Source of the DNA: a virus | Reading direction: 5' to 3' (one strand) | Length of the DNA stretch: 64,000 bases | IMG/VR virus record: IMGVR_UViG_3300027872_000002 | Span: 1-64,000 of that record | Shown here: in pieces, positions 17,142-58,197 of the stretch | How positions within the stretch are numbered: position 1 is the first letter of the stretch | How the letters are laid out: every line of letters begins with the position of its first letter | Position numbers and translations under genes: made by a program | The notes under the pieces: model-generated | What the model saw: only the letters and a program-made list of their open reading frames with translations | The model's database searches: none | Told to the model about the DNA's origin: nothing

Positions 17142-17705
17142 ATGGCAGTTTCGCCCATCGTTGCGACTCCTGGGGCCGCAGACGCCAACTCCTTCATCGA
17201 TGAGGCGTTTGCCGATCAATACCTGGAGGACCGGCTCAATGCTGAGTCTTGGGCGGCAGCGGATCCGGATGACAAGAGTCGAGCCCTCATTGAGGCCACC
17301 CGTGATCTGACTCGGCTGGTGTACATCGGCCAAAGAACCGATGACGTCCAAGCTCTCTCATGGCCGCGGTTTGAAGCCATCGATCCAGACACGCCACTCT
17401 CGGATGATGGCTTTGGAAGCATCTCATTCTATCCTGATGATGAGATCCCTGACCGGATCCAGAATGCCACTGCGGAATATGCTTTTGAGTTTATCAAGTC
17501 CGGAGCCGTGGACGTGGCTGCGATTGATCCCAGCGCCGGCATCAAGAGGACCAAGGTGGACGTGTTGGAAACTGAGTTCTTTGCTCCTGGTGGTACGTCT
17601 GGTGGGGCTGAAGGTTTCAACCGCTATCCAAGGGTCATGTCAGAGATCACTCCTCTGCTGGATGAGTCATCTGCCGGCGGATCCCTTGAAGTGTTGAGGG
17701 CATAA
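17142..17705 (+). CDS. head-tail connector/adaptor protein (gp6-like)
   Basis: 187 aa. The N-terminus ADANSFIDEAFADQYLEDRLNAESWAAADPDDKSRALIEATRDLTRL is typical of Phage_connect_1-type adaptors. Confidence 0.6.
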   Translation: MAVSPIVATPGAADANSFIDEAFADQYLEDRLNAESWAAADPDDKSRALIEATRDLTRLVYIGQRTDDVQALSWPRFEAIDPDTPLSDDGFGSISFYPDDEIPDRIQNATAEYAFEFIKSGAVDVAAIDPSAGIKRTKVDVLETEFFAPGGTSGGAEGFNRYPRVMSEITPLLDESSAGGSLEVLRA

Positions 17706-18175
17706 TGGCTGAAGTTGTCAAGATCGCAGACAAGGACATCAACCTTTCCCTCTTGACGGAGGAATTGGCTGCGACCATCGTGCCGGCTTATGGGCTCTTG
17801 CTGGCTGGCTTCACCTTCAGTCGCTCCAGTGGCTTTTATGAGCCAAATGGGAGGGCCACGATCATCTCCACTCGCTCGGATGGCCAGGGTGGAACGATCA
17901 ACGACATCGCAGCAATCGGAGAGCTACGGTTTGAATTCCGGAGTGCTCTGACGGCAGCAGAGGACACCGCGCTGGATGGGGCGTTGACGGCTCATACCGC
18001 TACCACAAAAACCAATGAGCAGCAGAATGAAGCTCAGGACGATATAGATGCGGCGCAGCTTTTGGTTGACTATGGAAACTGGGATGGTATGACAGCCGTC
18101 CAGAGGGATGCCACGACCAAGATTATGCTGCGCCTCCAGACTCGCAAGCTCCTTGGACCGGTGGCTGATATCTAA
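17705..18175 (+). CDS. hypothetical neck-module protein
   Basis: 156 aa with an ATGA-type overlap. Confidence 0.5.
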   Translation: MAEVVKIADKDINLSLLTEELAATIVPAYGLLLAGFTFSRSSGFYEPNGRATIISTRSDGQGGTINDIAAIGELRFEFRSALTAAEDTALDGALTAHTATTKTNEQQNEAQDDIDAAQLLVDYGNWDGMTAVQRDATTKIMLRLQTRKLLGPVADI

Positions 18176-20031
18176 TGTCGATTGAGCGAGCCCTTGCGAG
18201 CGCCAGTTTCGCATTGGATGATCTGGTTTACACCCAGATTAATGGCATGACTTTGACTCCAGGGAAGGCTCCGGGAGGATACCTGGCATTCTTCTCGATG
18301 GACCAAACTTTTGCCGATCCCGTGAGTGGTGCGGCATTCCTCAGAACTCAGATCTTTGATAATGGGGTGGGGCTTGGTCATTCGATCAGGCGACTCGATG
18401 CTGATAACTCAATCGACGCTGCTCAGATTCCCACTATTGGAAGTGCCTTCGTGGACCCGGAAGATGGAGAGGTGGTTGAGGTTCGCTACCTTGTTGGATC
18501 TACTGGCGAGATGGTGGGCTTCAATCGGGAGCTAACCTTGTTCCCAGCCAAGGACATTCTCCAAGATACGGCAACCGGAGATGACACGATTGCTAGTGCC
18601 ACCTTTGCCCAGCTTGGGAGTATGGTCCGGACTCCTCCGGCTGGGACCTATCTCTTGTTGTTCACGACATCCGCAGATGGGCCTGGGGATATTCCAATTG
18701 GCTTTAGAGTGGCGATTGACGGGACTCCCATCGCCCACACTCTCCGCCAGAAGGAAGATGAGGGATCAGCGCCCAACTCTGCGTATGGAATCATGATTGC
18801 GGCTTCCATCACCGTGGACGGAACTGAGGAAGTTGCGATTGAGTGGAACCGAGTGGGAAGTGGGACGGTGACCTGCCATGAGCGGAACATGATTTTTGTC
18901 CCGACCAAGGACACAAATATCTTCCAAGCCACGGGGACCGCTACTGATACTGACACCACGCTCGATGATGTTCTGATTGATGATATGACGATCTCCTCTC
19001 CACCTGGCCCTTTTGATTATCTGGCTCTGTTCTCGGCATATGATTCCTATGTGGCGACTCCAGCGGATGCCAAGACCAAGTATTCCATCATCGTGAATGG
19101 GTCTCTCCCGGCAAACCTTGATCGGACTCACGAGCATGAGGACTCGATTGACGATGCCTTCATGACAGTCTACTCGGGAGGACGCATCTCAGTAGTCAAG
19201 GAAGCTCCACCGCCACCTCCGATTGTCCCAATTGTTCCAGACGATAGTGGCCAGGGCTGCTCAGCTGCCGCCACGACTCATGACATCACCGGAGCTACCC
19301 ATGGATTGACCGTTGGCTCTGGGAATGATCGCTACCTCTTGGTGGCTATTGCTCAGGGAGATACAGAGGCAGTCTTGACCTCAGTGACTTGGGATCAGGG
19401 CGGCAGTAACCAGGCGATGACTCGGGTTGGGGATGCGACGTTCTCACCAGACACAAGGATCGAGCTTTGGGAGTTGATCAATCCTGCGGCAGGGAATCTG
19501 GATCTCAGGGTTGTCTCCCCTTCCTCTGTTGGGATCGCTGCGGGCCTCTCCTCTTATGAAGAAGTTGACCAGACAACTCCATTCAGAAATTTGGTTACCA
19601 ACACTGGCGCTGGGACTCCGGGCCCACCTCCCTCCATAGTTGTGAGTTCAGTTGTTGACGATCTGGTAGTGGACGCTGTTTCTTCAAAAGATGTTGCTGC
19701 CGGTCATACTCCGGGAGCCGGTCAGACGGAGAGATGGGACATTGCCTGTAACGGGAACAACGATGACTCTGTTGGATCAGACAAGGCTGGAGCCGCCAGC
19801 GTGACGATGAGTTGGAGTGCCTCGATCACTGAGCAGTGGGCCGTGATTGGGTTGTCTCTCATTCCTGCCGTGGGAGCCGGGAGTGGAGTTGATCCTGATG
19901 TCAAAGTATTTTGGCAGAGTAGCATTGCAGACATAAGAGCAATCCATGAACGCACGCTGGTCTTGCTTCGTGAACCGTTCTCGTCACTTCGACCATCTTG
20001 GCCTAACCGATACCCACACTTGAGGATGTAA
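18175..20031 (+). CDS. large hypothetical structural protein
   Basis: 618 aa with an internal PPPPPIVPIVP linker. No recognisable catalytic motif. Confidence 0.55.
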   Translation: MSIERALASASFALDDLVYTQINGMTLTPGKAPGGYLAFFSMDQTFADPVSGAAFLRTQIFDNGVGLGHSIRRLDADNSIDAAQIPTIGSAFVDPEDGEVVEVRYLVGSTGEMVGFNRELTLFPAKDILQDTATGDDTIASATFAQLGSMVRTPPAGTYLLLFTTSADGPGDIPIGFRVAIDGTPIAHTLRQKEDEGSAPNSAYGIMIAASITVDGTEEVAIEWNRVGSGTVTCHERNMIFVPTKDTNIFQATGTATDTDTTLDDVLIDDMTISSPPGPFDYLALFSAYDSYVATPADAKTKYSIIVNGSLPANLDRTHEHEDSIDDAFMTVYSGGRISVVKEAPPPPPIVPIVPDDSGQGCSAAATTHDITGATHGLTVGSGNDRYLLVAIAQGDTEAVLTSVTWDQGGSNQAMTRVGDATFSPDTRIELWELINPAAGNLDLRVVSPSSVGIAAGLSSYEEVDQTTPFRNLVTNTGAGTPGPPPSIVVSSVVDDLVVDAVSSKDVAAGHTPGAGQTERWDIACNGNNDDSVGSDKAGAASVTMSWSASITEQWAVIGLSLIPAVGAGSGVDPDVKVFWQSSIADIRAIHERTLVLLREPFSSLRPSWPNRYPHLRM

Positions 20032-20033
20032 CG

Positions 20034-20516
20034 ATGAGAGGAATCTATGCTGTCGCGTTCACTGGGTATTCGATCAACAATGCCGATGGTATCCAAGACC
20101 TGTTCGAGATTCAACCGGCTGCTGATAGGCCAATCGAGCTAGTTGGGTTCAAGTTCTCCCAGAGAACCGATTTTGGGGACTCTGAAGAGGAAGGCTTGCC
20201 GGTCAATGTCATTCGTGGGAATCTGGTCATTGGGTCCGGAGGATCTGCTGTGACTCCTCGCCCACTCGACCCACGAGATTCTGCGGCTGGCTTCACGGCA
20301 GTCCGAGGCAATACCACTCCGGCATCGACAGGGGTGGAGCATCTTCTGGATGCGGAGAGTTGGAACATTCGTCAGACGATTCTCAACATGCCGGTTCCAG
20401 AGGCTCGCGGCAAGGCTGACAACTTGGCTGCGAATAGGATCCTGGTTGTTCGTTTGCTGGTAGCACCAAATAGCGACATCGTCACAGAAGGCACTGCTTG
20501 GGTCAGAGAGCTTTAA
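20034..20516 (+). CDS. hypothetical structural protein
   Basis: 160 aa, starting 3 nt after the previous stop. Confidence 0.5.
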   Translation: MRGIYAVAFTGYSINNADGIQDLFEIQPAADRPIELVGFKFSQRTDFGDSEEEGLPVNVIRGNLVIGSGGSAVTPRPLDPRDSAAGFTAVRGNTTPASTGVEHLLDAESWNIRQTILNMPVPEARGKADNLAANRILVVRLLVAPNSDIVTEGTAWVREL

Positions 20517-20544
20517 CCATCACCACCAAGGGGAGGACCGTACA

Positions 20545-21129
20545 ATGAGGACAGTGGAGATTCAGCGCCGATTTGATATGACGGCGCAAGAAGTCGAGGC
20601 AGCGCGCAAGCGTTTCTCCGGCAAGTTTGGCGCGCAGCCTGGGCGCTGGCACAATCGCAACGGAGTCATGGTCCATGAGTATACCGATGAGATGATCTGG
20701 ACTCCCAATCTGGTCGTCAACGAGGGCCTGAACCACGCCTTGGAAACGGTCATCAACGCTGGGACTCCGATCACGGTTTGGTTCCATACCGGATTCACGG
20801 ACAACATCACTCCGCTGGCCACGCACACGGCAGCGGTTCCGGGTGTCACGGAGATCGACGCTGCTGACGTTGCCGAGGCCGTGCGGGAGACCTTCAACGC
20901 CAACGCTGCGTCGGGCCAGTCCATCGACAACGTGGCTGGGCCGGTCTCGCAGTACACAGCTGATCAGACGTTCACGATGTTCGGAATGGAACTGATCGGT
21001 GGTGGGACTTCAGCATTCGGCAACACTGCCGGAACCCTGTGGGCACAGAACCTGCTCGCACCGTCCAGACCAATGGTAGCGTTGGACACGCTCGACATGG
21101 TCTACACCTTCCCCGCAACGGCCACCTGA
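20545..21129 (+). CDS. hypothetical structural protein
   Basis: 194 aa with GGGGAGGA upstream. Confidence 0.5.
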   Translation: MRTVEIQRRFDMTAQEVEAARKRFSGKFGAQPGRWHNRNGVMVHEYTDEMIWTPNLVVNEGLNHALETVINAGTPITVWFHTGFTDNITPLATHTAAVPGVTEIDAADVAEAVRETFNANAASGQSIDNVAGPVSQYTADQTFTMFGMELIGGGTSAFGNTAGTLWAQNLLAPSRPMVALDTLDMVYTFPATAT

Positions 21130-21151
21130 TACGGGGACCAAGGAGGCAATC

Positions 21152-21397
21152 ATGGCTGTACCGGAAACCAAACTTACCAAGAGGGCATATCCTGACAAGG
21201 AATCTGCCAAGCGTGGAGCCCTCACCAAGACGGTCCGCAATTTCAAGCTCTCCGTCAAGACTTGTGAGGATGCTCTCGCACAGCGCATCAAGGATGGAGA
21301 AAAGGAGATTGCATTCTTCAAAGCTGAGCAAGACAAAGCTGAGAAGATGTTGGTTGCTTTTGAGGCGGCAGTGACCGCAGCAGCCGAGAAGGAATAA
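21152..21397 (+). CDS. hypothetical coiled-coil protein
   Basis: 81 aa, Lys/Glu-rich, with AAGGAGG upstream. Confidence 0.45.
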   Translation: MAVPETKLTKRAYPDKESAKRGALTKTVRNFKLSVKTCEDALAQRIKDGEKEIAFFKAEQDKAEKMLVAFEAAVTAAAEKE

Positions 21398-21403
21398 GTC
21401 CAA

Positions 21404-23983
21404 ATGTCAGGGGTGTTTCGTAGGCGCCATTTCTGGCCGCATTTTACGCGGAGGGCAATGCTCTTCACGGCGGCTGGCAGTGCGGCGTTCAGCTCATCAG
21501 AGGTTGCTGGAATTGCCTTTGGTTCCGTCCCTGATACAATCTCTGCGTTTGAAGCTTCTGAGTCGAGTGGGATTGGCTTCGGGTCTACTCCCCTTGCGAT
21601 TGGTTCTTTCAATGCCTCGGAGTCATCTGGCATTGCCTTCGGCTCAGTTGAGTCTGTTGTCAAATCTTTACTCGCGTCTGAGACAGCAGGGATAGAATTT
21701 GGCTCTGTAGAGAATGTCACTGCGAGCCTCCAAGCTTCTGAGTCAGCAGGAATCGAGTTTGGATCTATCCCTGTTGTTGAAGGCGATTTCATTGCCACTG
21801 AATCCTCCGGGATTGGGTTTGGTAGCACGCCAGCCACTACTCTCGATGCCATTGCGTCGGAGACGGCTGGGATTGGGCTCGGGTCCACGCCAACCGCAAC
21901 CCTTGACGCCCTGGCATCGGAGTCGAGCGGAATTGAATTTGGCTCCGTTGAATCTGTGGTCCTTGTCCGTCTGGCATCGGAGACGGCTGGGATTGAATTT
22001 GGGTCTCTTGAGTCTGCTATCTTGGCAGCCATCGCATCGGAGACGGCTGGGATTGAATTTGGGTCTGCCCCTGCCACCGAAGCAGACTTCATTGCCTCAG
22101 AGTCGGCTGGGATCGCATTTGGTTCCGTAGCTCTGGCGACACCCACTGCTCTGGCCTCAGAAACTGCCGGGATTGAGTTTGGGTCGGAGGAGTCTGCGGT
22201 TGCTGCTTTCCAGGCATCGGAATCCTCTGGGATAGCGTTTGGATCCGTAGCTCTGGCGACACCGCTGGTAGGTGCCTCAGAGATCGCTGGAATTGGGTTC
22301 GGATCCGAGGAGTCTGTCACCGCACAATTCCTTGCCTCAGAGACGGCTGGGATCGCATTTGGATCCACGGCTCTCGTTGAGGGTGACTTCCTTGCCTCAG
22401 AGACGGCTGGGATTGGGTTCGGCTCAGTCGAGTCTACCAACCTTGCCGCTGAGGCTTCTGAGTCCTCCGGTATCGAGCTTGGTTCCACCCCAGACACCAC
22501 CGGGGCCTTCCAGTCATCGGAGACGGCTGGAGTCGAGTTTGGGTCTGAGGAATCTGCCACTCTGACGGCCATCGCCTCAGAGACCGCTGGGATAGGATTT
22601 GGGTCTGAGGAATCCACAATACTGGGTCAAGCCTCAGCGGAAGCAGGGATTGGGTTTGGGAGTACACCTCAGACCACCCTGATGGCCACGGCCTCAGAGA
22701 CGGCTGGGATCGCATTCGGATCCAACCCACTTGCTGAGGGAGCTTTTGAGTCCTCAGAGATCGCTGGAATCGCATTCGGATCTGTAGCACTAGCCACCCA
22801 GTTCTTTGAGGCATCGGAGACCGCTGGGATAGGATTTGGCTCAGCCGAGAATGCCGCCCTCCAAGCCATCGCCTCAGAGTCGAGTGGGATAGCGTTTGGA
22901 TCGACTCCCTTCACTGCCCTAGTTGGGACAGCATCAGAGTCCTCCGGGATAGCTCTTGGATCCGTAGCCCAAGCAACCCTCGATGCTCTTGCCTCAGAGA
23001 CGGCTGGGATCGCATTCGGCTCGATAGCGACCATCAGCAACATCCTGGCCTCAGAGTCCTCCGGGATCGGATTTGGCAGCGTTGCAGGATCTGTTCTAAC
23101 GGCTCTGGCCTCTGAAAGCGCAGGGATAGCCTTTGGCAGCGTTGAGACAGCGGAGGGAGTGTTTGCAGCATCTGCATCGTCTGGAATCGCATTCGGGTCT
23201 ATAGCCCTGGCCGTGTTCACGCCGATCACGCCGGTCCTGGTTGGAAAATATCAGCCAGAGCACGCACGTGCGCTCATCGACCTAACCAACGCCGGCACAT
23301 CGGTCATATTCACAAATGAGAATCCATCCTACACATTCAACCCAGGGATCTCTGGACTCAGCGCCACGACTGTAGACGGCAAGGCCATCGAGACATCCGG
23401 AAGGCCCTTCAGATATGAGGGCTCCACGCTGGTTGTCACGGAGGACCCAACCCTCATATTTGCACCGACTGCCTATGGGAATTTCCCAGACATCGGGGAC
23501 CACGTTATTTGGAGGGGCCTGGACCACATCGTTGCCGACATCGAGCTACTGGCACCTGATGCCGTCACGATCCTCGCCTTCATCCGAATCTCACTCCAAG
23601 ATTCTGGTGTACAATCCATACCTGGGACTGAGTTCCTCCCGGACCATGCGAGGGCTCTCACTCAAATCAAGGATGCTGGAAGGCCCGTGACATTCTTGGA
23701 AGACAATCGGGTGTACACGTTTGAGACTGGGCTGAGTACAATCTCCCAAACCGCCATCGAGGGCCATGCGATTCGCACCGGTGGAACCAAGAAGATGTAT
23801 GAGCTACTTGGCCTGGTTGAAAGAGACGCCGTGACCCTGCTCTTTGCCGGGAATACCTTTGGTGAGTTTCCCAACACGGGGATGAGGGTTGATTGGGGGA
23901 GCATTGACTACACCGTTCGTTGGACTCAGCGCATAGCTCCAGACGGTGGAACGATCATCAGCCGTGTGGTGGTATCGAGATGA
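21404..23983 (+). CDS. tandem-repeat structural protein: about 29 x 20-aa repeats plus a duplicated C-terminal domain
   Basis: 859 aa. Repeat consensus ASE[ST][AS]GI[AEG]FGS-x9. Two roughly 110-aa C-terminal paralogous modules (PEHARALIDLTNAG... and PDHARALTQIKDAG...). Confidence 0.7.
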   Translation: MSGVFRRRHFWPHFTRRAMLFTAAGSAAFSSSEVAGIAFGSVPDTISAFEASESSGIGFGSTPLAIGSFNASESSGIAFGSVESVVKSLLASETAGIEFGSVENVTASLQASESAGIEFGSIPVVEGDFIATESSGIGFGSTPATTLDAIASETAGIGLGSTPTATLDALASESSGIEFGSVESVVLVRLASETAGIEFGSLESAILAAIASETAGIEFGSAPATEADFIASESAGIAFGSVALATPTALASETAGIEFGSEESAVAAFQASESSGIAFGSVALATPLVGASEIAGIGFGSEESVTAQFLASETAGIAFGSTALVEGDFLASETAGIGFGSVESTNLAAEASESSGIELGSTPDTTGAFQSSETAGVEFGSEESATLTAIASETAGIGFGSEESTILGQASAEAGIGFGSTPQTTLMATASETAGIAFGSNPLAEGAFESSEIAGIAFGSVALATQFFEASETAGIGFGSAENAALQAIASESSGIAFGSTPFTALVGTASESSGIALGSVAQATLDALASETAGIAFGSIATISNILASESSGIGFGSVAGSVLTALASESAGIAFGSVETAEGVFAASASSGIAFGSIALAVFTPITPVLVGKYQPEHARALIDLTNAGTSVIFTNENPSYTFNPGISGLSATTVDGKAIETSGRPFRYEGSTLVVTEDPTLIFAPTAYGNFPDIGDHVIWRGLDHIVADIELLAPDAVTILAFIRISLQDSGVQSIPGTEFLPDHARALTQIKDAGRPVTFLEDNRVYTFETGLSTISQTAIEGHAIRTGGTKKMYELLGLVERDAVTLLFAGNTFGEFPNTGMRVDWGSIDYTVRWTQRIAPDGGTIISRVVVSR
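21494..23222 (+). repeat. 60-bp coding tandem repeat array (about 29 units)
   Basis: Period 60 nt (two 57-nt units). Units are diverged at the DNA level but conserved as the peptide ASExxGIxFGS. The antisense strand stays open as a compositional artefact. Confidence 0.85.
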
Positions 23984-24360
23984 CTTTTCAAACGGATATT
24001 GCGAGGTTTGTCGTCAAGACTTTTGTGAAACAAAAGCTCATATTCTTCACCGTGGCGAATGAGCTACAAACCAGCGTCAAGGAAGGGAGCAAAATTACCG
24101 GGAGCCCTGGCCAACCGGTGGCCATATTGAATGGAGGCGAACTGAAAAATTCATGGCAACTTGAGTTCTTGGATTTGTTCCTTGCAACGACCACCACTCC
24201 AATCATATATGCCAGAGGTATCGAGGAAGGAATGGACCCAAGGACTGGGAACCAATTGACGTTGAGATCGGAGGTGGGAGGATTCCATAGCGTGAAGCTG
24301 ACTCGTGCGGGATACCAGAAGCTGGTCAACCAGGTTGCTAGAAAGGTGAGACAACTCTGA
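23980..24360 (+). CDS. tail completion protein (HK97 gp10-like, tentative)
   Basis: Internal ATG 23980 (ATGA overlap) of ORF 23920..24360. Has TGSPGQPV...GELKNSW and IYARGIEEG patterns and sits upstream of the tail tube gene. Confidence 0.5.
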   Translation: MTFQTDIARFVVKTFVKQKLIFFTVANELQTSVKEGSKITGSPGQPVAILNGGELKNSWQLEFLDLFLATTTTPIIYARGIEEGMDPRTGNQLTLRSEVGGFHSVKLTRAGYQKLVNQVARKVRQL

Positions 24361-25037
24361 TGCCATTCAGCAATTTTCAAATAGTGGAGACCTTCAGAGA
24401 CCGATTGGTCACGCTCTTGGTCGTGCCGGCTCCCGTGGTTGATATCGAGGTTGTAGAGGGCTCCCCAGACGACACATATGTCAGGGCCTCAGGGTCATGG
24501 GTCGATGATGGATTTTATCCAGGGATGGAAGTCGATGCGTCAGGGTTCGCAGACTCGGCCAACAATGGCCTATCTGTAGTGAAGGTCGCCACCGATTTGG
24601 TGCTGACCGTGGATGAGAATTTGTCGAATGAAGCTTCAGCATCAGGAAGGTCGATCAGTGTGGGGTTGCCCTCCCGGATTGCTCCTGAGAATATTGAGTT
24701 CACCCCGGATGAAGGCAAGCCATACGTGGAGGAAGGTTTCGTCCCAGGCCCAACAACGCAAGAGACTGTGGGACCGGGAGGAGATATTGAGGCTGACCCA
24801 TTGTATGTTGTGAGGCTGTTTGTCCCAGCAGATTATGGGCCTGAATCTTTGCACTTATATGGAGATGCCCTGGTGGCTCTATTTGCTTCCAGGACTGCTA
24901 TGTCCCTAACCAATGGAGATGTGTTGCGAGTCCGTACAAACCCTGGACCATTCCGGGGCCAATTGCTTCAGTTGAAACCAGGGTGGGCCACCGTGCCGGT
25001 GTCGATCCCGCTCAGGATCCGCACTATCAACCCGTAA
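24360..25037 (+). CDS. tail terminator-like protein (DUF4128-like, tentative)
   Basis: 225 aa. C-terminal pattern YVVRLFVPADYGPESLHLYGDALVALF ... WATVPVSIPLRI, and position immediately before the tail tube gene. Confidence 0.45.
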   Translation: MPFSNFQIVETFRDRLVTLLVVPAPVVDIEVVEGSPDDTYVRASGSWVDDGFYPGMEVDASGFADSANNGLSVVKVATDLVLTVDENLSNEASASGRSISVGLPSRIAPENIEFTPDEGKPYVEEGFVPGPTTQETVGPGGDIEADPLYVVRLFVPADYGPESLHLYGDALVALFASRTAMSLTNGDVLRVRTNPGPFRGQLLQLKPGWATVPVSIPLRIRTINP

Positions 25038-25055: not shown

Positions 25056-26252
25056 ATGCCGGAACAGACTGGACAAAACGTCCTGGTGGCTTACAAGGAG
25101 GAATCAGCCTTCAATGATCCGCCAGCACCTGTCACGGGAGGGAGACGGTTGCGGTTGAATCCAACGCCTGGTCTTCAACTCGCGGCACCAACGATTCTGC
25201 CTGGTGAGCTTAGGTCAGATCTGCTGACTCCAATTGCTCGGCTGGGGAGCCGGTCAGTTGGCGGAAACTATCTGTGTGATATGTCGGTTGGTAGCTTCGA
25301 TGACATTTTCGAGGCTGTGCTGAGGAGCACATTTGTTGCCGAGGTATTGATCACAGAAGTGGCGATGACTTCGATCACCACGACCACTAGCACCATCGTG
25401 GCCGCTGGAGGATCTTGGATCACCGAGGGAGTGAGAGTTGGCGACATCGTGAGGCTCACCGGCCACTCGACTCCAGCCAACAACGACATCAACCTTTTGG
25501 TCTTGAGCTTGACGGCCTCGACCATCACCCTGGTGGGGACTCCGCTGGTTGTCGATGCGGCTCCGGATGCCACCTTCACTCTCACCATCCTCAAGAAGGT
25601 TACCAATGCGCCGGCACCGTTGCGCCGGAGCTTCCATCTTGAGGAATACTTTGCCGACATCGACCAGTCGCTGCTCTTTGGTGGCTGCCGTTGGGATGGC
25701 ATGACCATCACGGGAAGCCCAGACGGAATGGCCACGATTGACCTGCCGGTTGTCGGGGCCTCCCAGACTCCTCTGGACACTGGCGCTTCTCCATTCTTTG
25801 ACACCCCATCTCTGGACACCACGATTGGGTTGGTTTTCGTGGACGCCCAGATCTCCTTGGGCGGTGTGTTCCTGGTCACAGGGACAGCCTTCACCCTTGA
25901 GCTTGCTCTCGGGATGGCTGGACTTCCGGTGATCGGATCCACGGTCACCCCAGACGTTTTTGACGGGAGGTCCGTGATCAGCGGATCCATCTCCATCGTG
26001 AGATCGGATTTGTCAAGGGTCACTGCTTTCGATGCAGAGACTGAGTTTGAACTTCATGTCCTCTTGGAGGAGCCGACTGGGACTCCCAAGGGTGCGCTGA
26101 GCATCTTCATTCCCAAGCTCAAGTTCACGGCTGCTGACGCGCCATTGGGATCGGATGGAGCTATGATTGAGACCATCCCCTTCCAGGTTGGAGTTGAGCC
26201 AGGGACGACCACCAAGGACACCACGATGATCACGATCTGCACGGAGACTTGA
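25056..26252 (+). CDS. major tail (tube) protein
   Basis: 398 aa with GGAGGA upstream. Lies between the terminator-like gene and the chaperone/tape-measure genes. Called on gene order only. Confidence 0.6.
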   Translation: MPEQTGQNVLVAYKEESAFNDPPAPVTGGRRLRLNPTPGLQLAAPTILPGELRSDLLTPIARLGSRSVGGNYLCDMSVGSFDDIFEAVLRSTFVAEVLITEVAMTSITTTTSTIVAAGGSWITEGVRVGDIVRLTGHSTPANNDINLLVLSLTASTITLVGTPLVVDAAPDATFTLTILKKVTNAPAPLRRSFHLEEYFADIDQSLLFGGCRWDGMTITGSPDGMATIDLPVVGASQTPLDTGASPFFDTPSLDTTIGLVFVDAQISLGGVFLVTGTAFTLELALGMAGLPVIGSTVTPDVFDGRSVISGSISIVRSDLSRVTAFDAETEFELHVLLEEPTGTPKGALSIFIPKLKFTAADAPLGSDGAMIETIPFQVGVEPGTTTKDTTMITICTET

Positions 26253-27259: not shown

Positions 27260-30200
27260 ATGGGCGTAGATATTGCAACACTTGGCCTGATTCTTGATGG
27301 CCGTCAGATGCGGGCTGAATCGGCTCGCGTCAGTACGTCCTTGGCCACAGTTGGAAAGACAGGCGCTGGCGTCACCAAGACCATGCTTCGACTTGGGCTG
27401 TCCATCGGTGCGCTTGTGGCCTTCCGGACAGCCACGAAGTTGGCCGGAGACTTCACGACCGCCATGACTCGCTCCCTCGCCATCATGGGCGATGTTGATG
27501 ACCTCATGCGCAACCGGCTCTCCAATGCGGCTCGTGAGGTTGGGATTGAATTGAACCTTGGCGCCACCCAAGCGGCTGAGGCATTTTTCTTCCTCGCCAG
27601 CGCGGGCCTCGATGCTGAGGCTGCGTTGGGGGCTCTGGTTCCGGTCGCTACATTCGCCAAGGCTGGTATGTTCGATATGGCGTTGGCCACTGACCTTGCT
27701 ACAGACGCCCAAAGTGCTCTTGGTCTCAGGACTAATGACGTTGCTCAGGACATCGAGAATTTGACGAGGGTGACGGACGTGCTGGTGAAGGCCAACACCA
27801 TCGCCAACGCAACTGTGGAACAGTTCGCAACGTCCATCACGACAGAGGCCGGAGCCGCACTGAAAATCTTCAATAAGGATATTGAGGAAGGCATTGGAGT
27901 TCTGGCCGTGTTCGCTGACCAGGGCGTCAAGGGTCAGGTGGCCGGTTCCGGCTTGGCCAGGATCCTCCGAATCATGACATCCGCTGCGGTCAATAATGCG
28001 GCTGCGTATGAGAAGATGAACATCGAGGTCTTTGATGCGGAGGGCAATGTAAGAAACTTTGCTGACATCGTTGAGGATCTGGAGAATGAGCTTGGAGGAT
28101 TGTCAGATGCTCAACGTGTAGCTTCTCTACAGACTCTTGGCTTCAAGGCTCGCATCCAAGGCGTGATCAATCCACTCATTGGAGCCAGCGAACAGATCCG
28201 TGGTTATGAGGCTGCTGCCAGGAGTGCCGGAGGGATCACCCAAGAGGTAGCAGACAAGCAACTCGCAGCACCGATGGAACGTGCCGGAATTGCGATGAAG
28301 ACATTCGCTGATGCGGGGATCTCGGCTGGTATGACTATCCTCCGGGTCATGGTGCCGGCTCTGGAGGCTCTCGCAGAGAATGTGGGCCTTGTAGTCGATG
28401 TCCTGCTGACCCTGGCGGTAGCTCTCGTGGCCCTCAAGCTTGGGGCCTTGATCCCCTCCCTCTTTGCTGCCGGCGCTGCGGCTCTGGCCTTTGGCGCCAA
28501 TCTCATATTTGTAGCGACTACTGCCGCCACCGCCTCAGCCGCACTCCTCAACGTCGCAATCCTCCTGGGACCTGCCGCCCTGTTGATCGTAGGTGTGGCT
28601 GCGGTTGCTGCTGGTTTCTTCCTTTGGAGGAGAAGTGTGAGGGCGACCAGAGAGGAGATGGAGAGGCAAGAATCAGTCATAAATGCAGACACAGATCGCA
28701 TCAAGACCTTGACCGATGTCAACTTGGAGCTAGCCCAAGCCCAAGCCATCCGTCTCCTCACCCAGGCACGGTTGGCTAGGTCTGCTGGAACGATCTCTGA
28801 AGAGGAGGAAGTCAGGGCCACTCGATTCTTGAATATCTTGACCAAGACCACCAGGGAGATCAAGTCAAGGGCAGACGCTGAAGCTGAGGCCGCTGCCAGG
28901 CGTGCCACTGCTGAGGCCGCATTGGGAGTTGAAGGTGCTCTTGCCTTCGTTGGATCTGCTGAGGAAGCAGCCGAGAGAGAGTTGGAAAGGATCACGGCTC
29001 TCAACGCTGCCTTTGGTCAGTCGGCAACGGCTCTCGATAAGATCAATTTGGAGTTTGATCGCCAAGAGAAGTTGCTTGATATTGCCACCGATGCCGAGCT
29101 TGAGAATTTGGCGGCACTAACCAGGGTGACCCAGGCCATATTCGATCAGAAGTTGATACAGATTGAACTCAACGAGGCCAGAGAACAGGGGCAGTTGGAG
29201 TCCAGTCGAGAGAGGGAGTTGGCTTCAATTATCGCACGCAATAATGCCATCGGTCAGAGTGCTGAAGAGCAAGCCAAGTTGAATGTGGAGCTTGCGAGAG
29301 CCGACCAATTGGCGAAGGATGCTGAGACGCTCTCCGGCCAAGCTCTTGCGGATGCAGAAGCTCACACGAATGCATTGGCCGATGAACGCCTGAGGACCAT
29401 CGAGCTAACCCAAGCCGAGGCTGATCGGGAAATCATCGCACAGGCTGGGAACCAAGTCGAGCGTCAGCGACAGATCAACGAGGCCACTTTGGCCGGAGGA
29501 GATGCCCTGGAGAGGCTCAACGTGGAGCTTGCGAGGAAGGCTGCTCTGGACGCAAATGGCAAGCGTGCCTCGGGACAGACTCTCATTGATCTGAACAACG
29601 CCACCAACGCCCTGTTTGATCTCCGGGCAGCATTGGTCGGAGCCAACGATGAATTTGATAAGGGCAAGGATCTCCCGGAGCTATACGCTGAGGCCCTGAG
29701 GCAGATTCAAAATGCGTTCGCTGGGGGCTTTGATAGCGTCTTTGAGAATGGCCTTGCAGGATTTGAAGATATGGCCAGAGGCATCCTCGATATTTTCCAG
29801 GGCTTGGCGGCAGATATTGCTGCTGCGTTTGCTGCCGATAAATTGGGCATCGATGATATTGTCAAGACCTTGTCAGAGGGAGGAGAACTGTCGGGAGCCC
29901 AGCAACTAATTGGGGGAGCAGCCTTTGGGGTAGGGATCGGATCAGCCGTTGGCGGTGGGGGACTCGGGAGCCAGATTGGCGGAGGGATCGGTGGGGCTGC
30001 AGGGTTCGCGGTTGGAGGCCCGATTGGTGGAGCTATTGGGGGAGCTATCGGTGGCGCCATCGGTGGATTGTTCGGTGGCGATGAAGATAAGGAAGCCCAA
30101 AAGGAATTCAGTCAGACGGTTGAAAAATTCATCAACTCGATGAGGTCAGCATCCGCTGGGTTCCAGGATCCCGCCATCGCCGTACAGCAGCAGTTGCTGA

Positions 30201-31183
30201 GCTTGGTCGAGGGCTTTGAAGATGCCTTCGACAAGACCGTCATAATCACCGAGCAACAGAGGGAATTGATAGCTCAGAGTCCATTCCTCAGATCCCAGGG
30301 GTTCCTTGAAGGGAACACGTTGCTCAACGCCAATACAAATCTGGAGGACTTCACCCAAGGAGTCCGGGATGCCCGTGACCGATTCAAGGATGGATCGAAA
30401 GAATGGAATGCACTGAACGAGGTTCTTGAAGCTTCCACCCTGGCCGTGGCGGAGTTCCGGAGACAACAGCGCGAGTTGACCAAGGACTTCGTGGCCGACT
30501 TGACGGCACGTGAGGCTGCTCTCTCGGGAGATGAGGCAGGGGCCATTTCCGCCACGCTTGTCAGAGCGCAAGAGAAGGAGCTTGCCGGGGCAAGAGCGCT
30601 GGTGGAGCAAGGGACGATCACAGAGGATCAATTCCAGAGATTGGCCAGGGTCTTGGATCAAGAATTGGCCGAAGCTATAATGAGCGTGGACGGCTCAGTG
30701 GACCAGCTTCTCGGGACTTTATTGGACTTCCAAAATGAGCTTACATTCGGAGCCAATACGGCTGTGGCTCCGACTCAGCAACTCGATATAGCACGGCAAC
30801 AATTTGAGGATGCCCGGAGAGCAGCCCTGGCCGGAGACGCCCAAGCCCAAGCCTCTCTCCCGGAGTTGGGCAAACAGCTGCTGGCAGTCTCCCGCCAAGT
30901 CAACGCTTCTGGGGCTGGCTTCCAGCAAGACTTTGCTCGCGTCTCCTCAACGGTCGATGAGGTCATTGCGCAGTTTGGAGAACAGTCGAGCATTGAGGAG
31001 AGAGGAGTCAAGGCCCAGGAGTCGAGCCTCCAGAAAATCACAGAGGCTCTTGCTGAGAGTCAAGAGACCAATCGACTCCTCAGGGAAGGGTTCCAGCTTG
31101 AGGGCGACAACCAGGTCCAACAGAGAGCGGCCACGGAGGATCTGACCGATGAGGTTGCCCGTGGCGGGGAGGTGCTTGTCTGA
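27260..31183 (+). CDS. tail tape measure protein
   Basis: 1307 aa. N-terminal tape-measure core style (FFFLASAGLDAEAAL), hydrophobic helices at about 28.37-28.63 kb, long coiled coils, and a Gly-rich block GGGIGGAAGFAVGGPIGGAIGGAIGGAIGG at about 29.9-30.1 kb. Confidence 0.9.
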   Translation: MGVDIATLGLILDGRQMRAESARVSTSLATVGKTGAGVTKTMLRLGLSIGALVAFRTATKLAGDFTTAMTRSLAIMGDVDDLMRNRLSNAAREVGIELNLGATQAAEAFFFLASAGLDAEAALGALVPVATFAKAGMFDMALATDLATDAQSALGLRTNDVAQDIENLTRVTDVLVKANTIANATVEQFATSITTEAGAALKIFNKDIEEGIGVLAVFADQGVKGQVAGSGLARILRIMTSAAVNNAAAYEKMNIEVFDAEGNVRNFADIVEDLENELGGLSDAQRVASLQTLGFKARIQGVINPLIGASEQIRGYEAAARSAGGITQEVADKQLAAPMERAGIAMKTFADAGISAGMTILRVMVPALEALAENVGLVVDVLLTLAVALVALKLGALIPSLFAAGAAALAFGANLIFVATTAATASAALLNVAILLGPAALLIVGVAAVAAGFFLWRRSVRATREEMERQESVINADTDRIKTLTDVNLELAQAQAIRLLTQARLARSAGTISEEEEVRATRFLNILTKTTREIKSRADAEAEAAARRATAEAALGVEGALAFVGSAEEAAERELERITALNAAFGQSATALDKINLEFDRQEKLLDIATDAELENLAALTRVTQAIFDQKLIQIELNEAREQGQLESSRERELASIIARNNAIGQSAEEQAKLNVELARADQLAKDAETLSGQALADAEAHTNALADERLRTIELTQAEADREIIAQAGNQVERQRQINEATLAGGDALERLNVELARKAALDANGKRASGQTLIDLNNATNALFDLRAALVGANDEFDKGKDLPELYAEALRQIQNAFAGGFDSVFENGLAGFEDMARGILDIFQGLAADIAAAFAADKLGIDDIVKTLSEGGELSGAQQLIGGAAFGVGIGSAVGGGGLGSQIGGGIGGAAGFAVGGPIGGAIGGAIGGAIGGLFGGDEDKEAQKEFSQTVEKFINSMRSASAGFQDPAIAVQQQLLSLVEGFEDAFDKTVIITEQQRELIAQSPFLRSQGFLEGNTLLNANTNLEDFTQGVRDARDRFKDGSKEWNALNEVLEASTLAVAEFRRQQRELTKDFVADLTAREAALSGDEAGAISATLVRAQEKELAGARALVEQGTITEDQFQRLARVLDQELAEAIMSVDGSVDQLLGTLLDFQNELTFGANTAVAPTQQLDIARQQFEDARRAALAGDAQAQASLPELGKQLLAVSRQVNASGAGFQQDFARVSSTVDEVIAQFGEQSSIEERGVKAQESSLQKITEALAESQETNRLLREGFQLEGDNQVQQRAATEDLTDEVARGGEVLV

Positions 31184-44955: not shown

Positions 44956-46398
44956 GTGTCCAGTTTCCCTTACAAAACAGATCCCTATTCTCATCAGCGA
45001 GATGCCCTCAGGTTCCTCGCCAAGCGTGGCAAATATGCTGGTCTGTTCATGGAGCAAAGGACCGGCAAGACCAAGGTCATTCTTGACGAGGCAGCATGGC
45101 GATTCTTGAAGGGAGAGATTGGCGCCCTGCTGATCCTGGCTCCCTCCGGAGTCCACACCAACTGGGTCCGTGATGAGATCCCTCTCCACCTCTCTGATGA
45201 GGTCGAGCGTGTGGTGATCGAATGGGACACAGGGAAGTCCAAAACGAAATGGTTCAGGGAGATGTTCAGAGAGGCTATGGCGACCAAAGGCAAGTTGGTC
45301 ATCCTCAGCATGAACATCGAGGTCCTGATCACAGACGGTGGCAAGAAGGCAATCAAGACTCTCATGCGATACTTCCCCACCATGATGGTCATCGATGAGA
45401 GCACCGACATCAAGACGGCTGGAGCCAAGAGAACCAGGAGCGCCAAATACCTTGGCAAGCGTGCGGTGTTCCGTCGCATCCTCTCCGGATTCCCAGACCC
45501 AGAAGGGCCACTGGACTTCTACGGTCAACTGAGCTTCCTGTCGCCTGAGATTATTGGATCGAATGTAGCGACCTTCAAGGAGAGGTATGGCCGATTTGAA
45601 CAACGCTACTATCACGGCAAGAATGCCAAGCCGGTTCAAGTCCTAGTTGGGTACAAGAACCTCCCGGAGCTAACCAAAATTGTCGCCCAACATTGCTTCC
45701 GTGTCCGGAGAGATCAGGTGTTTGATCTGCCTGACAAAATCTACCAGAAACGATACTTTGATTTGTCACCGGAACAGAACCGAATGTATGCCGAGCTTGA
45801 GACCGATTGGCTCACCAACTACATCGAGGATGATGCTGAGGTGAGCGCACCCTTGACCATCGTTCGGCTCCTCCGGCTCCAACAGATTGCGTCTGGCTAT
45901 GTCCCCACTGATTCCGGGGAGGAACCAAACCGGCGGATTGCTGGGCCCAACCCTCGACTCAAAGCTCTGACCGATGCGGTCTCCAGGGTTGATGGACAGA
46001 TCATCATTTGGTATCGCTACCGGATGGACGGAGACCTGTTGGAAGAGACCCTTGGCGACGATGTTGTGAGGTGGGATGGCACGACCAAAAAGACCAGGGA
46101 GGAAGGCAAGGTCAAATTCATTCAGGGCAAGGCTCGATTCTTCATAGGATCCCCAAAGGCTGCTGGCCGCGGATTGACCCTCAAGATGGCCCAAGCCTCA
46201 CTCTACTTCTCTCACTACTGGAGCCTGGAAGCAAGAGTCCAATCTGAGGATCGTGCGGTGGGCGAGAAGGACTGGCCACCGCTGTATATTGACATCATGG
46301 GAAAGGACACAGTGGATGAAAGGATCATTGATGCCCTCCGCGCCAAGGATGACTTGGCTCGCCTAGTGTTAGGAGACCCAGCAAGGAAGTGGATATAA
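44956..46398 (+). CDS. SNF2-family (SF2) helicase/ATPase
   Basis: 480 aa with a GTG start. Motif I EQRTGKTKV, motif II VIDESTDIK, and a helicase C region GSPKAAGRGLTL ... QSEDR. Confidence 0.8.
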   Translation: MSSFPYKTDPYSHQRDALRFLAKRGKYAGLFMEQRTGKTKVILDEAAWRFLKGEIGALLILAPSGVHTNWVRDEIPLHLSDEVERVVIEWDTGKSKTKWFREMFREAMATKGKLVILSMNIEVLITDGGKKAIKTLMRYFPTMMVIDESTDIKTAGAKRTRSAKYLGKRAVFRRILSGFPDPEGPLDFYGQLSFLSPEIIGSNVATFKERYGRFEQRYYHGKNAKPVQVLVGYKNLPELTKIVAQHCFRVRRDQVFDLPDKIYQKRYFDLSPEQNRMYAELETDWLTNYIEDDAEVSAPLTIVRLLRLQQIASGYVPTDSGEEPNRRIAGPNPRLKALTDAVSRVDGQIIIWYRYRMDGDLLEETLGDDVVRWDGTTKKTREEGKVKFIQGKARFFIGSPKAAGRGLTLKMAQASLYFSHYWSLEARVQSEDRAVGEKDWPPLYIDIMGKDTVDERIIDALRAKDDLARLVLGDPARKWI

Positions 46399-46800
46399 AT
46401 GAGCAAAGTGTATGTCGTTCAGGACCCTATGATCATGCGGGATGGCCGCAAGGAACGCAGGTTCAGTTTGGCCCCTGCTGAAGAATATGGAGAGTTGGTT
46501 TTTCTGCTGGGCTGGAATGATACAAGGGGATTGGGAGTCAAGCCTGGCGCAGAGCGCAGATTGTACCGGACACTCCGGTATAACCTGCGTGAGTTCAATG
46601 ACTCGGACTATCTGTTGATGACCGGGAATTGGACGGCTATGGCGATGGCCGTCGTGTGTGCTCTGGAGCATACTCGTGGCTTCGTGAGTTGCCTCCAGTG
46701 GGATCAGGAGGATCGTGAGTACAGGGTCATCGCAATTGATGTCAACCTCGATGACGATGACGAGAATTGGACACCAGAATTGGAGAATGAAGATGAGTGA
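46399..46800 (+). CDS. hypothetical protein
   Basis: 133 aa with a TAAATG junction and an acidic C-terminus. Confidence 0.5.
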   Translation: MSKVYVVQDPMIMRDGRKERRFSLAPAEEYGELVFLLGWNDTRGLGVKPGAERRLYRTLRYNLREFNDSDYLLMTGNWTAMAMAVVCALEHTRGFVSCLQWDQEDREYRVIAIDVNLDDDDENWTPELENEDE

Positions 46801-51620: not shown

Positions 51621-51635
51621 AATTGGAGAACCAAG

Positions 51636-58196: not shown

Positions 58197-58197
58197 T

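Follow-up and report, generated by a model that had tools for sequence, protein, structure and literature searches.

The genes of type 1 phage necks are ordered Ad1-Hc1-Ne1-Tc1, and the distance between the head-tail adaptor (Ad1) and the head-closure or stopper gene (Hc1) is typically 1, with 2 tolerated; the known stoppers are single-domain proteins of about 100–130 amino acids, one per phage (PMC4362835). Solved stoppers are hexamers in which the N-terminal helix lies on the outer side of the adaptor-stopper junction (PMC10276861, PMC9942802), and some connectors, those of Jabs, T5 and DT57C, lack a stopper (bioRxiv 10.64898/2026.07.24.740622). The prevailing view is that stoppers are minimal one-domain gatekeepers and that the known neck fibres are separate accessory proteins.

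Phage fibres are mostly trimers, and T4 fibritin (Wac) is a trimeric coiled coil. The collar whiskers (NPS) of TP901-1 and the 936 group are fibres of the siphophage head-tail junction that are thought to provide ancillary low-affinity host binding and have variable distal parts; NPS is a separate, non-essential protein with a BppU-like ring domain (an 18-mer) at its N-terminus, then a trimeric coiled coil, and carbohydrate-binding modules at its C-terminus (PMC6669499). In A-1(L), a pentadecamer anchors five neck fibres (PMC10966104). The literature on tandem or fused stoppers and on neck fibres yielded no account of a stopper fused to a fibre, and the putative stopper-whisker fusion presented here, together with its 20-residue repeat, has not previously been named or described.

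A duplicated stopper-family domain in the neck gene cluster

Our analysis of the window (the whole stretch of DNA studied, 64,000 nucleotides) centers on an open reading frame with an ATG start that encodes an 859-residue protein. The first-pass annotation had described it as a repeat array followed by a duplicated C-terminal domain, and ORF calling, a motif scan and alignment confirm this exactly. The features of the region are as follows:

17142..17705, plus strand: head-tail adaptor Ad1 (phrog_477, E 8e-37), the protein expected above a stopper ring
21010..22617, minus strand: antisense shadow ORF of 535 aa that runs through the array; not a gene
21404..23983, plus strand: entire gene of the putative stopper-whisker fusion, 859 aa; its own stop codon TGA shares bases with the start codon of the gene that follows (ATGA)
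21404..21493, plus strand: N-terminal leader, 30 aa, MSGVFRRRHFWPHFTRRAMLFTAAGSAAFS, pI 12
21494..23227, plus strand: repeat array, 29 tandem units, residues 31–608; consensus ASE[ST][AS]GI[AGE]FGS plus 9 variable residues
23243..23593, plus strand: stopper module 1 (head-closure, Hc1-like), residues 614–730; N-terminal helix, then beta strands
23594..23629, plus strand: inter-module linker, LQDSGVQSIPGT
23630..23980, plus strand: stopper module 2 (head-closure, Hc1-like), residues 743–859; the best-modelled part, pLDDT about 80
23980..24360, plus strand: ORF of 126 aa with translational coupling to the fusion; its place is that of the neck protein Ne1
24360..25037, plus strand: tail terminator (PF13554, phrog_179), the protein expected below a stopper ring
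25056..26252, plus strand: tail tube protein (PF18906, Phage_tube_2)

The local order is Ad1 ... fusion, 126-aa ORF, terminator, tube, chaperone and tape measure. Downstream of the fusion this fits the type 1 neck order; the upstream side differs in that Ad1 is not adjacent but lies five genes upstream (five ORFs intervene, an Ad1-to-Hc1 distance of six genes). The 126-aa ORF matches no Pfam or PHROG family and is kept in the related L003, L004, L005, L007, L008 and L014.

The two C-terminal modules are paralogues (39% identity over 116 aa, E = 7e-28). They had been placed from the letters at about 23255 and about 23639, and PEHARAL and PDHARAL lie at nt 23255 and nt 23639, respectively; their suspected likeness to head-tail joining or closure domains is borne out as well, since both match PHROG 161 and the structural model matches solved neck or stopper chains. 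In the linker motif LQDSGVQ the four full-length proteins differ at the S alone, which is A in two of them. The 257-aa C-terminus matches phrog_161 ('head closure Hc1') in two stretches (E 5.4e-7), the window's modules taken alone do so at E of about 1e-3 to 5e-7, and so do 10 of 10 modules from five relatives (best E 4.6e-6). A HMMER search of 1.84 billion representatives gave 295 matches for the modules, mostly single-module proteins of 117–125 aa. Such stand-alone relatives of about 120 aa are 35–45% identical to either module, and the seven that were scanned all have phrog_161 matches, which mostly span nearly the full profile and in five cases reach E 1e-9 to 1e-11. Pfam found no match in the window's modules; PF05354 (Phage_attach, the lambda gpFII family) is matched by 18 of 89 stand-alone relatives (best E 1.4e-4). 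Alignment of the family profile with lambda gpFII by hhalign is weak (probability 8%, E 0.004), with the register kept around the APDG/SPDD motif, and gpFII itself is assigned to phrog_82, not phrog_161. A module-profile sequence search of the PDB gave non-significant matches, the best relevant one being 'Stopper protein gp12' (E 0.7). By profile, then, the modules are linked to characterised stoppers indirectly.

The AlphaFold2 model of module 2 has a helix at residues 746–758 followed by strands. In Foldseek comparisons the model matches 8hdr_A (Pam3 neck), 9l0e_A (T1 stopper-terminator) and 8gtf_M (R4C stopper-terminator) with probability 0.98–1.0 and TM 0.45–0.53, and its BFVD matches are proteins of about 120 aa that carry the annotation head closure knob or head-tail connector (TM 0.6–0.84). 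Module 1 is modelled poorly (pLDDT 35–70) and owes its fold assignment to its paralogy with module 2; each module retains the N-terminal helix. We place both modules in the head-closure/stopper family (PHROG 161, Hc1). They are like the Hc1 stoppers SPP1 gp16, lambda gpFII, R4C gp9 and Pam3 connector gp11 in their size (about 117–120 aa) and helix-plus-beta-barrel layout, in their PHROG profile match and structural similarity to neck chains, and in being encoded just upstream of the terminator and tube. On the other hand, the distance from Ad1 and the marginal sequence links to gpFII are unlike the Hc1 stoppers, and in place of the single domain of known stoppers the protein has two modules and a 608-residue N-terminal extension, so at 859 aa it is a variant and not a canonical member. 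Relatives with three modules exist, and one relative has a two-module ORF and a separate third module.

Might the protein instead be an accessory fibre or adhesin with borrowed stopper-like domains that attaches elsewhere, for example to the tail or capsid, or a protein absent from the virion? The five additional genes between it and Ad1 would fit such a reading, as would the existence of connectors that have no stopper (see above) and the single-module relative P0005 (in L006), whose gene lies outside a neck module and adjoins one with a Mu-F-like product, as judged by eye. We nonetheless consider it improbable, since the gene has the canonical place of Hc1, with the Ne1-like ORF (to which it is translationally coupled), the terminator and the tube following directly, a six-frame search of the 64-kb window found no stopper-like sequence besides the fusion, and the arrangement of the locus is shared by at least three divergent lineages.

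The repeat array and its relatives

The motif scan finds the 29 units of the array in residues 31–608, as against the approximately 29 units from residue 31 first reported. Twenty-seven units are 20 aa long and two (units 19 and 26) are 19 aa, and the 28 unit-to-unit spacings are 20 aa in 26 cases and 19 aa in two; this periodicity is far beyond chance. Unit positions 1–3, 6, 7 and 9–11 are near-invariant (A in 24 of 27, S 26, E 25, G 27, I 26, F 24, G 27 and S 27), with I7 and F9 as invariant residues, and positions 12–20 are variable, of which 15, 17 and 19 are hydrophobic in the array units. Positions 17 and 19 covary, L/A against G/F, in a pattern like volume compensation (MI 1.52 bits, z = 22.6). 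The net charge of the array is about -66. The 60-nt units have a mean pairwise nucleotide identity of 54% (maximum 77%) and an amino acid identity of 53%, and in the conserved 11 residues the mismatch frequencies at the three codon positions are 0.18/0.15/0.60. This asymmetry means that the motif is under purifying selection at the protein level, which is where the earlier reading had placed the maintenance of the period, rather than in recent slippage. TRF picks up just one short 60/120-nt stretch of the array; given this limited detection and the divergence of the units, the array is not a product of recent slippage, and collapse in assembly is unlikely.

Arrays of this kind are present in three independent metagenomic contigs (L003, L004 and L005). 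The variation in repeat number for which the first-pass annotation had proposed to search metagenomes does exist, with 29 units in the window and 34, 37 and at least 30 in relatives. Window units 7–29 are collinear one-to-one with units 15–37 of L003, including the positions of both 19-aa units, so that the collinear stretch in the orthologues is the neck-proximal 23 units. At the same locus in sister lineages two stopper modules stand behind different N-terminal arrays (P0012 in L008 and P0008 in L014), and in other lineages large globular domains take the place of the leader at the N-terminal end. Because unrelated arrays and tip domains are found on the same anchor across sister lineages, the putative neck fibre looks exchangeable and probably faces the host or the environment.

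These observations bear on whether the array is an artefact, that is, a collapsed or expanded mis-assembled repeat, a pseudogene, or the shadow of a real antisense gene at 21010..22617. A public gene call at the locus (P0001) does begin at internal Met427, leaving out the first 20 units, the antisense frame is open for 535 aa, and in the short contigs L001 and L002 homology is lost upstream of the modules. However, assemblers would not collapse units that are just 54% identical in nucleotide sequence, the three independent contigs have intact, in-frame, collinear arrays, and the frame with the above codon-position pattern runs on into conserved domains. The antisense ORF shares its wobble position with the plus frame, so codon statistics cannot discriminate between the two strands; it is rejected as a gene for its lack of conservation (it is in pieces in the window and L003, and any antisense ORF in the L004 array is shorter than 100 aa) and for the continuous plus frame. 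We also doubt that L001 and L002 are natural array-less variants, since their homology simply stops upstream of the modules, and they may be chimeric short contigs. An artefactual or non-coding array is thus almost certainly the wrong explanation.

No Pfam, NCBIfam or PHROG model covers or names the 20-residue repeat, in agreement with the initial failure to recognise a named family, and NCBIfam applied to the protein and nine relatives gave nothing relevant. The match to PF24078 (autotransporter beta-solenoid) is weak (19.9 bits versus a cutoff of 27, E 6.9e-4), and membership in that autotransporter/TPS beta-helix family was rejected because the score is below the gathering threshold. The RTX motif is the nonapeptide GGxGxDxUx; an RTX beta-roll was rejected as well, as the unit here has 20 residues, its motif is ASExxGIxFGS and nonapeptide periodicity is absent. 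There is, on the other hand, a related and widespread unnamed 20-residue repeat, [ST]DG[IV]x[FW]GD, in the metagenomic phage proteins P0013, P0015, P0026, P0050, P0096 and P0144 (phmmer E 1e-21 to 1e-7). It has the same period and likewise a G-[IV]-x-[FW]-G core with small or acidic residues on either side, and units of L004 (SESDGIGFGS, GIQFGD) fall between the two motifs. These proteins, none of which has been characterised, differ from the fusion in having no stopper modules, in carrying LamG or other domains and in being encoded elsewhere in their genomes (in an SU10-like phage, for instance, upstream of the portal). The match to P0136, a eukaryote-like protein whose AGFDATQLKE decapeptide repeats were read as pentapeptide-repeat-like, is spurious. 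Searches by tblastn and blastn found no match among 50,697 GenBank phage genomes for the gene or its C-terminus, for a repeat relative or for the terminase-portal region, and a scan with the C-terminal domain found no relative in the genomes of 185,579 species, so no host is assigned.

Predicted fold of the array and the N-terminal leader

The array is predicted to be a beta-solenoid rod, within the beta-solenoid or fibrous fold first proposed for it. In the full-length AlphaFold2 model it is all-beta with a 20-residue period (pLDDT 60–86), and a 9-unit fragment gives the same picture (mean pLDDT 77.8, pTM 0.67); both models rest on 1–3 sequences in very shallow alignments, with the array modelled as a monomer. 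The DSSP trace has two strands per coil, and no helices are predicted by AlphaFold2 in the first 608 residues. The PDB neighbours found by Foldseek are solely beta-helix or solenoid proteins, all weak (E >= 0.7, TM < 0.5). AlphaFold is prone to turn any regular repeat into a solenoid. In its coil of about 20 residues and periodic all-beta prediction the array is like the single-chain beta-solenoids of the FHA/HpmA/HxuA TPS domains, autotransporter passengers and tapirin, but its motif is different, it has two rather than three strands per coil, and it is extremely acidic.

The same anchor might instead carry a trimeric beta fibre of the triple beta-helix or beta-spiral type, made of three intertwined chains, with two or four fibres per neck. 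Trimers are, as noted above, the commonest state of phage fibres; the prediction was made on a monomer, and solved solenoids in the PDB give no significant Foldseek match to the array model. In addition, the repeats of the sister protein P0008 contain HxH, reminiscent of the T4 gp37 needle, a metal-binding trimer. Yet chains that exit a ring at intervals of 60 or 120 degrees would need to come together off-axis, the two-strand inward/outward pattern of the unit with its i/i+2 compensating core pair is typical of single-chain solenoids, and the monomer model reaches the pTM given above. A trimeric shaft is therefore rather unlikely in our judgement, and the predicted solenoid is presumably monomeric.

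The leader, MSGVFRRRHFWPHFTRRAMLFTAAGSAAFS, consists of a basic part followed by an Ala-rich hydrophobic part; its type is retained in L003 and L004, and AlphaFold2 leaves it unmodelled (pLDDT 24–31). It could be a distal tip or a solenoid cap. By eye it resembles a signal peptide, with a basic n-region and an Ala-rich h-region, and in the window and L003 it includes a Tat-like TRRxxLF motif. A signal-peptide-like N-terminus is odd for a neck protein assembled in the cytoplasm. These features might mean that the protein is exported to work outside the virion, perhaps as an acidic repeat protein that is secreted or sits on the cell surface and takes part in superinfection exclusion or the timing of lysis, but L004 lacks the RR motif, other lineages have their large globular domains at this end, and the stopper modules and neck-operon position point to cytoplasmic virion assembly; we regard export as very improbable.

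A proposed neck whisker

We think it fairly probable that the fusion is an elaborated Hc1 of this uncultured siphophage, a tandem-duplicated stopper in the neck that displays single-chain beta-solenoid whiskers. Family assignment, fold matches and synteny all favour the first-pass guess of a collar fibre or whisker anchored to the neck by the C-terminal modules, and the protein is presumably incorporated there. The C-terminal 251 residues, two tandem stopper domains of about 120 aa, would after DNA packaging assemble into a ring beneath the dodecameric Ad1 adaptor, where the ring would retain the genome and offer a docking face to the terminator-capped tail. Since the N-terminal helix is at the outer junction in the solved stoppers, the 578-residue array would exit the ring at its periphery, and the rod presumably lies outside the neck. 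The array would fold as a one-chain beta-solenoid, one 20-residue coil per unit, in which I7, F9 and positions 15, 17 and 19 would face inward, with turns at the invariant SE and G-S residues. Such a solenoid would be a very acidic rod roughly 14 nm long (29 x ~0.48 nm) and would form a collar fibre or neck whisker; its stacked acidic ladder may be stabilised by cations.

Such a whisker would be like NPS in being a fibre at the siphophage head-tail junction (here predicted from sequence), but unlike NPS its anchor would be the stopper itself, at the C-terminus (a reversed polarity), and its shaft is all-beta in the model. A lactococcal NPS-type whisker was rejected because Pfam and PHROG searches found no carbohydrate-binding or BppU-like domains in the fusion and its first 608 residues have no predicted helices, a point that also sets the array apart from the coiled coil of fibritin. 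Fibritin and the A-1(L) fibres are likewise attached to the neck, but as separate proteins docked on neck proteins.

The copy number and function of the whisker are matters of speculation. We slightly favour three chains that form a pseudo-hexameric ring over six chains that form two stacked rings; a pseudo-hexamer would halve the number of whiskers, as with the tandem-duplicated T5 tail tube protein pb6, three chains of which make a pseudo-hexameric ring with three decorations per ring. This protein is a precedent for the tandem duplication of a ring-forming phage domain, although its fold and position (tube, not neck) differ. As candidate roles of the whisker we consider weak, reversible adhesion to surfaces of the host or the environment, electrostatic spacing, and control of other fibres. 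In a more specific version, which we put forward only as a tentative possibility, a single C3 pseudo-hexameric ring of three chains with their modules side by side would carry three single-chain, cation-stabilised acidic solenoid whiskers and be the first case of a stopper duplicated in tandem. Relatives with three modules, and the one whose third module is separate from its two-module ORF, would form 2 x 3 versions of this ring, and the G-I-x-F-G repeat would be a new beta-solenoid class that phages exchange as a shaft cassette between the necks of siphophages and the fibres of podophages.

A structure or profile model for the unnamed 20-residue repeat would improve the annotation of many phage 'hypothetical proteins', and the present gene has already been mis-started by public gene calling. 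If the proposed reading is true, it raises a question of symmetry (three, six or twelve chains), and the essential neck ring itself can serve as a display platform.

The fusion gene and its surroundings

The window is one strand-coherent phage segment of about 55% G+C with almost all of its long ORFs on the + strand, and no tRNA genes were found in it. The head and neck genes, from terminase through portal, head morphogenesis, head protein and Ad1 adaptor, are followed by five ORFs, the fusion gene described here, a 126-aa ORF, and then terminator, tube, chaperone and tape measure genes. The stopper (head-closure protein, Hc1) is the ring between adaptor and tail terminator.

Features of the window
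8748, terminase
10155, portal
12807, head morphogenesis
14824, major head protein
17142-17705, Ad1 adaptor
17705-21397, five ORFs (156, 618, 160, 194 and 81 aa)
21404..23983, + strand, stopper-array fusion; coupled 126-aa ORF next
24360-25037, tail terminator
25056-26252, tail tube; then chaperone
27260-31183, tape measure
47379-48236, Pam3 gp34-like family protein
48327-49877, AEP primase with PriCT domain
55307-56101, ThyX
58198-61059, DnaE-type Pol III alpha

Ad1 and stopper genes are normally adjacent, and the five ORFs that intervene here may encode additional neck or head appendages. The 618-aa ORF has a weak 'minor tail protein' match, and its positional counterpart varies in length among metagenomic loci that carry relatives (316 aa in L003, 417 aa in L004, 462 aa in L014 and 792 aa in L008). 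For a siphophage of about 70 kb the replication module (44956-61059), in which two SF1 helicases and one SNF2 helicase are also encoded, is of an unusual kind. The closest isolates are far removed: portal identity to Bordetella and Xanthomonas phages is ~25%, and the tail tube shares 40% identity with its counterpart in a Bradyrhizobium prophage.

The fusion gene has an ATG start, a GAAGGA motif 11-12 nt before it, and a 3' end that overlaps the next ORF as ATGA. The first 30 residues of its 859-aa product (21404-21493) start basic and turn Ala-rich and hydrophobic (FTRRAMLFTAAGSAAF; L004 counterpart RKANRLGIIAAAAGAFVA), a leader that resembles a Sec/Tat signal peptide or a solenoid end-cap. 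By motif scan, residues 31 to 608 are 29 consecutive units, spaced by 20 aa in 26 of 28 cases and by 19 aa in two (units 19 and 26). Positions 1-3, 6, 7 and 9-11 are near-invariant (A-S-E-x-x-G-I-x-F-G-S), and positions 12-20 are variable with a hydrophobic pattern retained at 15, 17 and 19. The array is strongly acidic (net charge about -66, pI about 4), and Glu is invariant at position 3.

The 60-nt units have a mean DNA identity of 54% (maximum 77%), mismatch rates at codon positions 1, 2 and 3 of the conserved 11 residues are 0.18, 0.15 and 0.60, and TRF picks up only a short 60/120-nt stretch of the array; recent slippage or assembly collapse is therefore a very unlikely origin, and the periodicity is, as the first-pass annotation held, one maintained in the protein. 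An antisense ORF (21010..22617, - strand, 535 aa) stays open across the array's first two thirds, and because it shares its wobble position with the + frame, codon statistics cannot tell the strands apart. We rejected it as a gene: it breaks up into fragments in the window and in L003, antisense ORFs of 100 aa or more are lacking from the L004 array, and the + frame continues into conserved domains. Automated annotation cannot be relied on for arrays of this type: JGI's public gene call here (P0001, 433 aa, 22682-23983 +, 100% identical) begins at internal Met427 and leaves out 20 of the 29 units.

Two stopper modules at the C-terminus

The 251-aa C-terminus consists of two modules with 39% identity across 116 residues (E = 7e-28), and the starts that had been assigned to them (23255 and 23639) are exact. 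Two stretches of it match PHROG 161 ('head closure Hc1'; E 5e-7), as do all ten modules from five relatives. Among 1.84 billion cluster representatives, HMMER returned 295 proteins at E <= 1e-3; the best 150 of these are mostly stand-alone proteins of 117-125 aa that are 35-45% identical to either module 1 or module 2, and all seven stand-alone relatives scanned match phrog_161, mostly across almost the whole profile (five of them at E 1e-9 to 1e-11). The Pfam family of λ gpFII, Phage_attach, is matched by 18 of 89 relatives from this search. Direct comparison of the family profile with λ gpFII, which falls in PHROG 82 and not 161, is only suggestive of kinship (hhalign E 0.004, 8% probability).

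AlphaFold2 predicts module 2 as a helix followed by a β domain (pLDDT about 80). Foldseek matches this model to a 110-residue Pam3 neck chain and to a chain each of the T1 and R4C stopper-terminator complexes (probability 0.98-1.0), and to many viral proteins of ~120 aa (annotated as head closure knob, head-tail attachment or connector; TM up to 0.84). N-terminal helices are predicted at residues 618-630 (module 1) and 746-758 (module 2), with the motif HARAL. Profile, fold and a position ahead of the terminator and tube place the modules in the Hc1/stopper superfamily, and the head-closure likeness noticed at first pass is supported. No second stopper-like sequence was found by the family HMM in six frames of the 64-kb window, and from profile, structure and gene context we conclude that ORF 21404..23983 probably supplies the head-closure protein of the phage.

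The whole 859-aa protein lies outside the definition of a stopper as a single small domain adjacent to Ad1. Lopes et al. report that they never detected more than one Hc1 per phage (PMC4362835), and our literature search turned up no account of a stopper that is duplicated in tandem or fused to a fibre.

Predicted fold of the array

The full-length AlphaFold2 model renders the array (pLDDT 60-86) as strictly periodic and all-β, with about 16 strand residues per unit and a 4-residue break at S-E-x-x. A 9-unit fragment, modelled with the array's other two thirds supplying the alignment rows, has two strands per unit (I-x-F; positions 14-21), pLDDT 77.8 and pTM 0.67. Its Foldseek PDB neighbours are overwhelmingly β-helix/solenoid proteins (tapirin; LpxA/LpxD/GlmU; SufB/D; the TPS domains of FHA/HxuA/HpmA; VacA p55; the IgA1 protease and SepA passengers), all at E >= 0.7 and TM < 0.5. 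These models indicate a β-helix/solenoid class, in line with the β-solenoid or fibrous fold proposed from the sequence, although no PDB match was significant and no solved relative emerged from the PDB. The array may be a monomeric solenoid, on a model built from very shallow alignments. Unit positions 17 and 19 covary strongly (L/A 35 times, G/F 27 times, A/F 10 times; MI 1.52 bits, z = 22.6, inflated by unit-subtype inheritance), as would be expected of two adjacent inward-facing side chains in one core. At the canonical β-solenoid rise of ~0.48 nm per coil, the 29-37 coils of the family would form rods of 14-18 nm, and the stacked ladder of about 29 glutamates suggests that cations may stabilise them.

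In the window protein and nine relatives the repeat is covered by none of the Pfam, NCBIfam or function-bearing PHROG models (the best Pfam match, an autotransporter β-solenoid region, is below threshold), in agreement with the first pass, which recognised no named family in it.

Relatives, possible cassette exchange and a proposed neck whisker

The family is rare. A word-index search with the C-terminus matched only the gene itself and two fragments, and relatives were found neither in 50,697 GenBank phage genomes nor in one genome for each of 185,579 prokaryotic species. Scans of IMG/VR and metagenome contigs gave three loci with orthologues.

Orthologues of the 859-aa protein
L003, 1021 aa, 37 units, C-terminal identity 75%
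L004, 961 aa, 34 units, C-terminal identity 64%
L005, 5'-truncated, at least 30 units, C-terminal identity 63%

All three retain the double module and the same neighbours, and they differ in repeat number, a point that the first pass had marked for checking. Window units 7-29 align one-to-one with L003 units 15-37 (55-95% identity, both 19-aa units included), and the eight-unit difference is confined to the N-terminal third; the neck-proximal rod therefore appears stable, with length shifting by whole units at the distal end. In two short metagenomic contigs with stopper modules (L001 1-210 and L002 1-362) similarity to the family is lost upstream, after the last half unit in L001 and inside module 1 in L002; they may be assembly chimeras, or genuine variants that lack the array or are rearranged.

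Exhaustive searching found many proteins whose long arrays repeat every 20 residues and show a related motif that has no Pfam or NCBIfam name, [ST]-D-G-[IV]-x-[FW]-G-[DS] (E 1e-21 to 1e-7; P0013, P0015, P0026, P0050, P0080, P0096, P0112 and P0144 among them), and L004 units contain intermediates (ASESDGIGFGS, GIQFGD). These proteins have no stopper modules, carry LamG or other N-terminal domains, and occur in other phage contexts: P0013 (L009 1608-5342) on a contig with an HK97-type capsid gene, and P0050 (L012 8001-10988 / L013 2435-5422) upstream of the portal gene in an SU10-like phage. Several proteins with [ST]DG[IV]x[FW]GD arrays terminate in short TFTVK-type repeats. The podophage protein P0050 shares an N-terminal domain with P0012 and P0103, and one JGI sample with P0012, which suggests module exchange across phage types.

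Conversely, two stopper modules stand behind N-terminal parts of quite other kinds, with unrelated arrays in the sister lineages L014 and L008: a globular domain and about 20 HxH repeats of ~22 aa in P0008 (L014 8001-10769, present on 10 contigs), reminiscent of the metal-binding repeats at the T4 long tail fibre tip; a ~170-aa globular domain and GDGAG...Y repeats in P0012 (L008 3899-6901); and another domain with LTQHN repeats in P0010. The P0012 and P0008 genes, the two whose surroundings were obtained, lie at the locus of the window gene, before a 119-135-aa ORF, a PF13554 terminator and a PF18906 tube gene. Module number varies as well, with three per chain in P0007 and P0103 (counted by eye), a two-module ORF joined by an ATGA overlap to a separate third module in L007 1-833 (P0004, 117 aa), and a single module with an extension in P0073 and P0088. 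Taken together, these sequences suggest one conserved anchor at the neck, to which shaft and tip cassettes of different kinds would have been added. The stand-alone stopper-family protein P0005 (123 aa; L006 169-1385) is encoded directly upstream of a gene whose product resembles, by eye, a Mu-F-like head morphogenesis protein, a departure from the usual place beside terminator and tube.

Solved necks of R4C and Pam3 have a hexameric stopper (named connector in the latter) beneath a dodecameric adaptor, and the stopper's N-terminal helix rings the outside of the adaptor-stopper junction and touches two adaptor subunits (PMC10276861; PMC9942802). Because both modules are predicted to keep this helix, we propose that the modules form the stopper ring, that the chain before module 1 would leave at its periphery, and that the array would jut from the neck as a whisker. 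A hexameric ring with two modules per chain could be built from three chains in one pseudo-hexameric ring or from six in a pair of stacked rings; variants of the three-module and 2+1 types would also fit the former (2 x 3 = 6), and stacking would fit any module number. The three-chain, in-ring arrangement is slightly favoured, because both modules keep stand-alone stopper features and bulky extensions would be halved in number, for which the tandem-duplicated T5 tube protein is a precedent. The first-pass reading of a solenoid or fibre anchored to the neck by its C-terminal modules is supported overall, with virion presence and oligomeric state as predictions. The collar-whiskers of lactococcal NPS, which contribute weakly to host binding in an ancillary role (PMC6669499), are displayed at the neck, as is proposed for the array. 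From this analogy, and from the cassette-like variation of the distal parts, we infer that the array may serve in reversible adhesion, electrostatic spacing or contact with other fibres.
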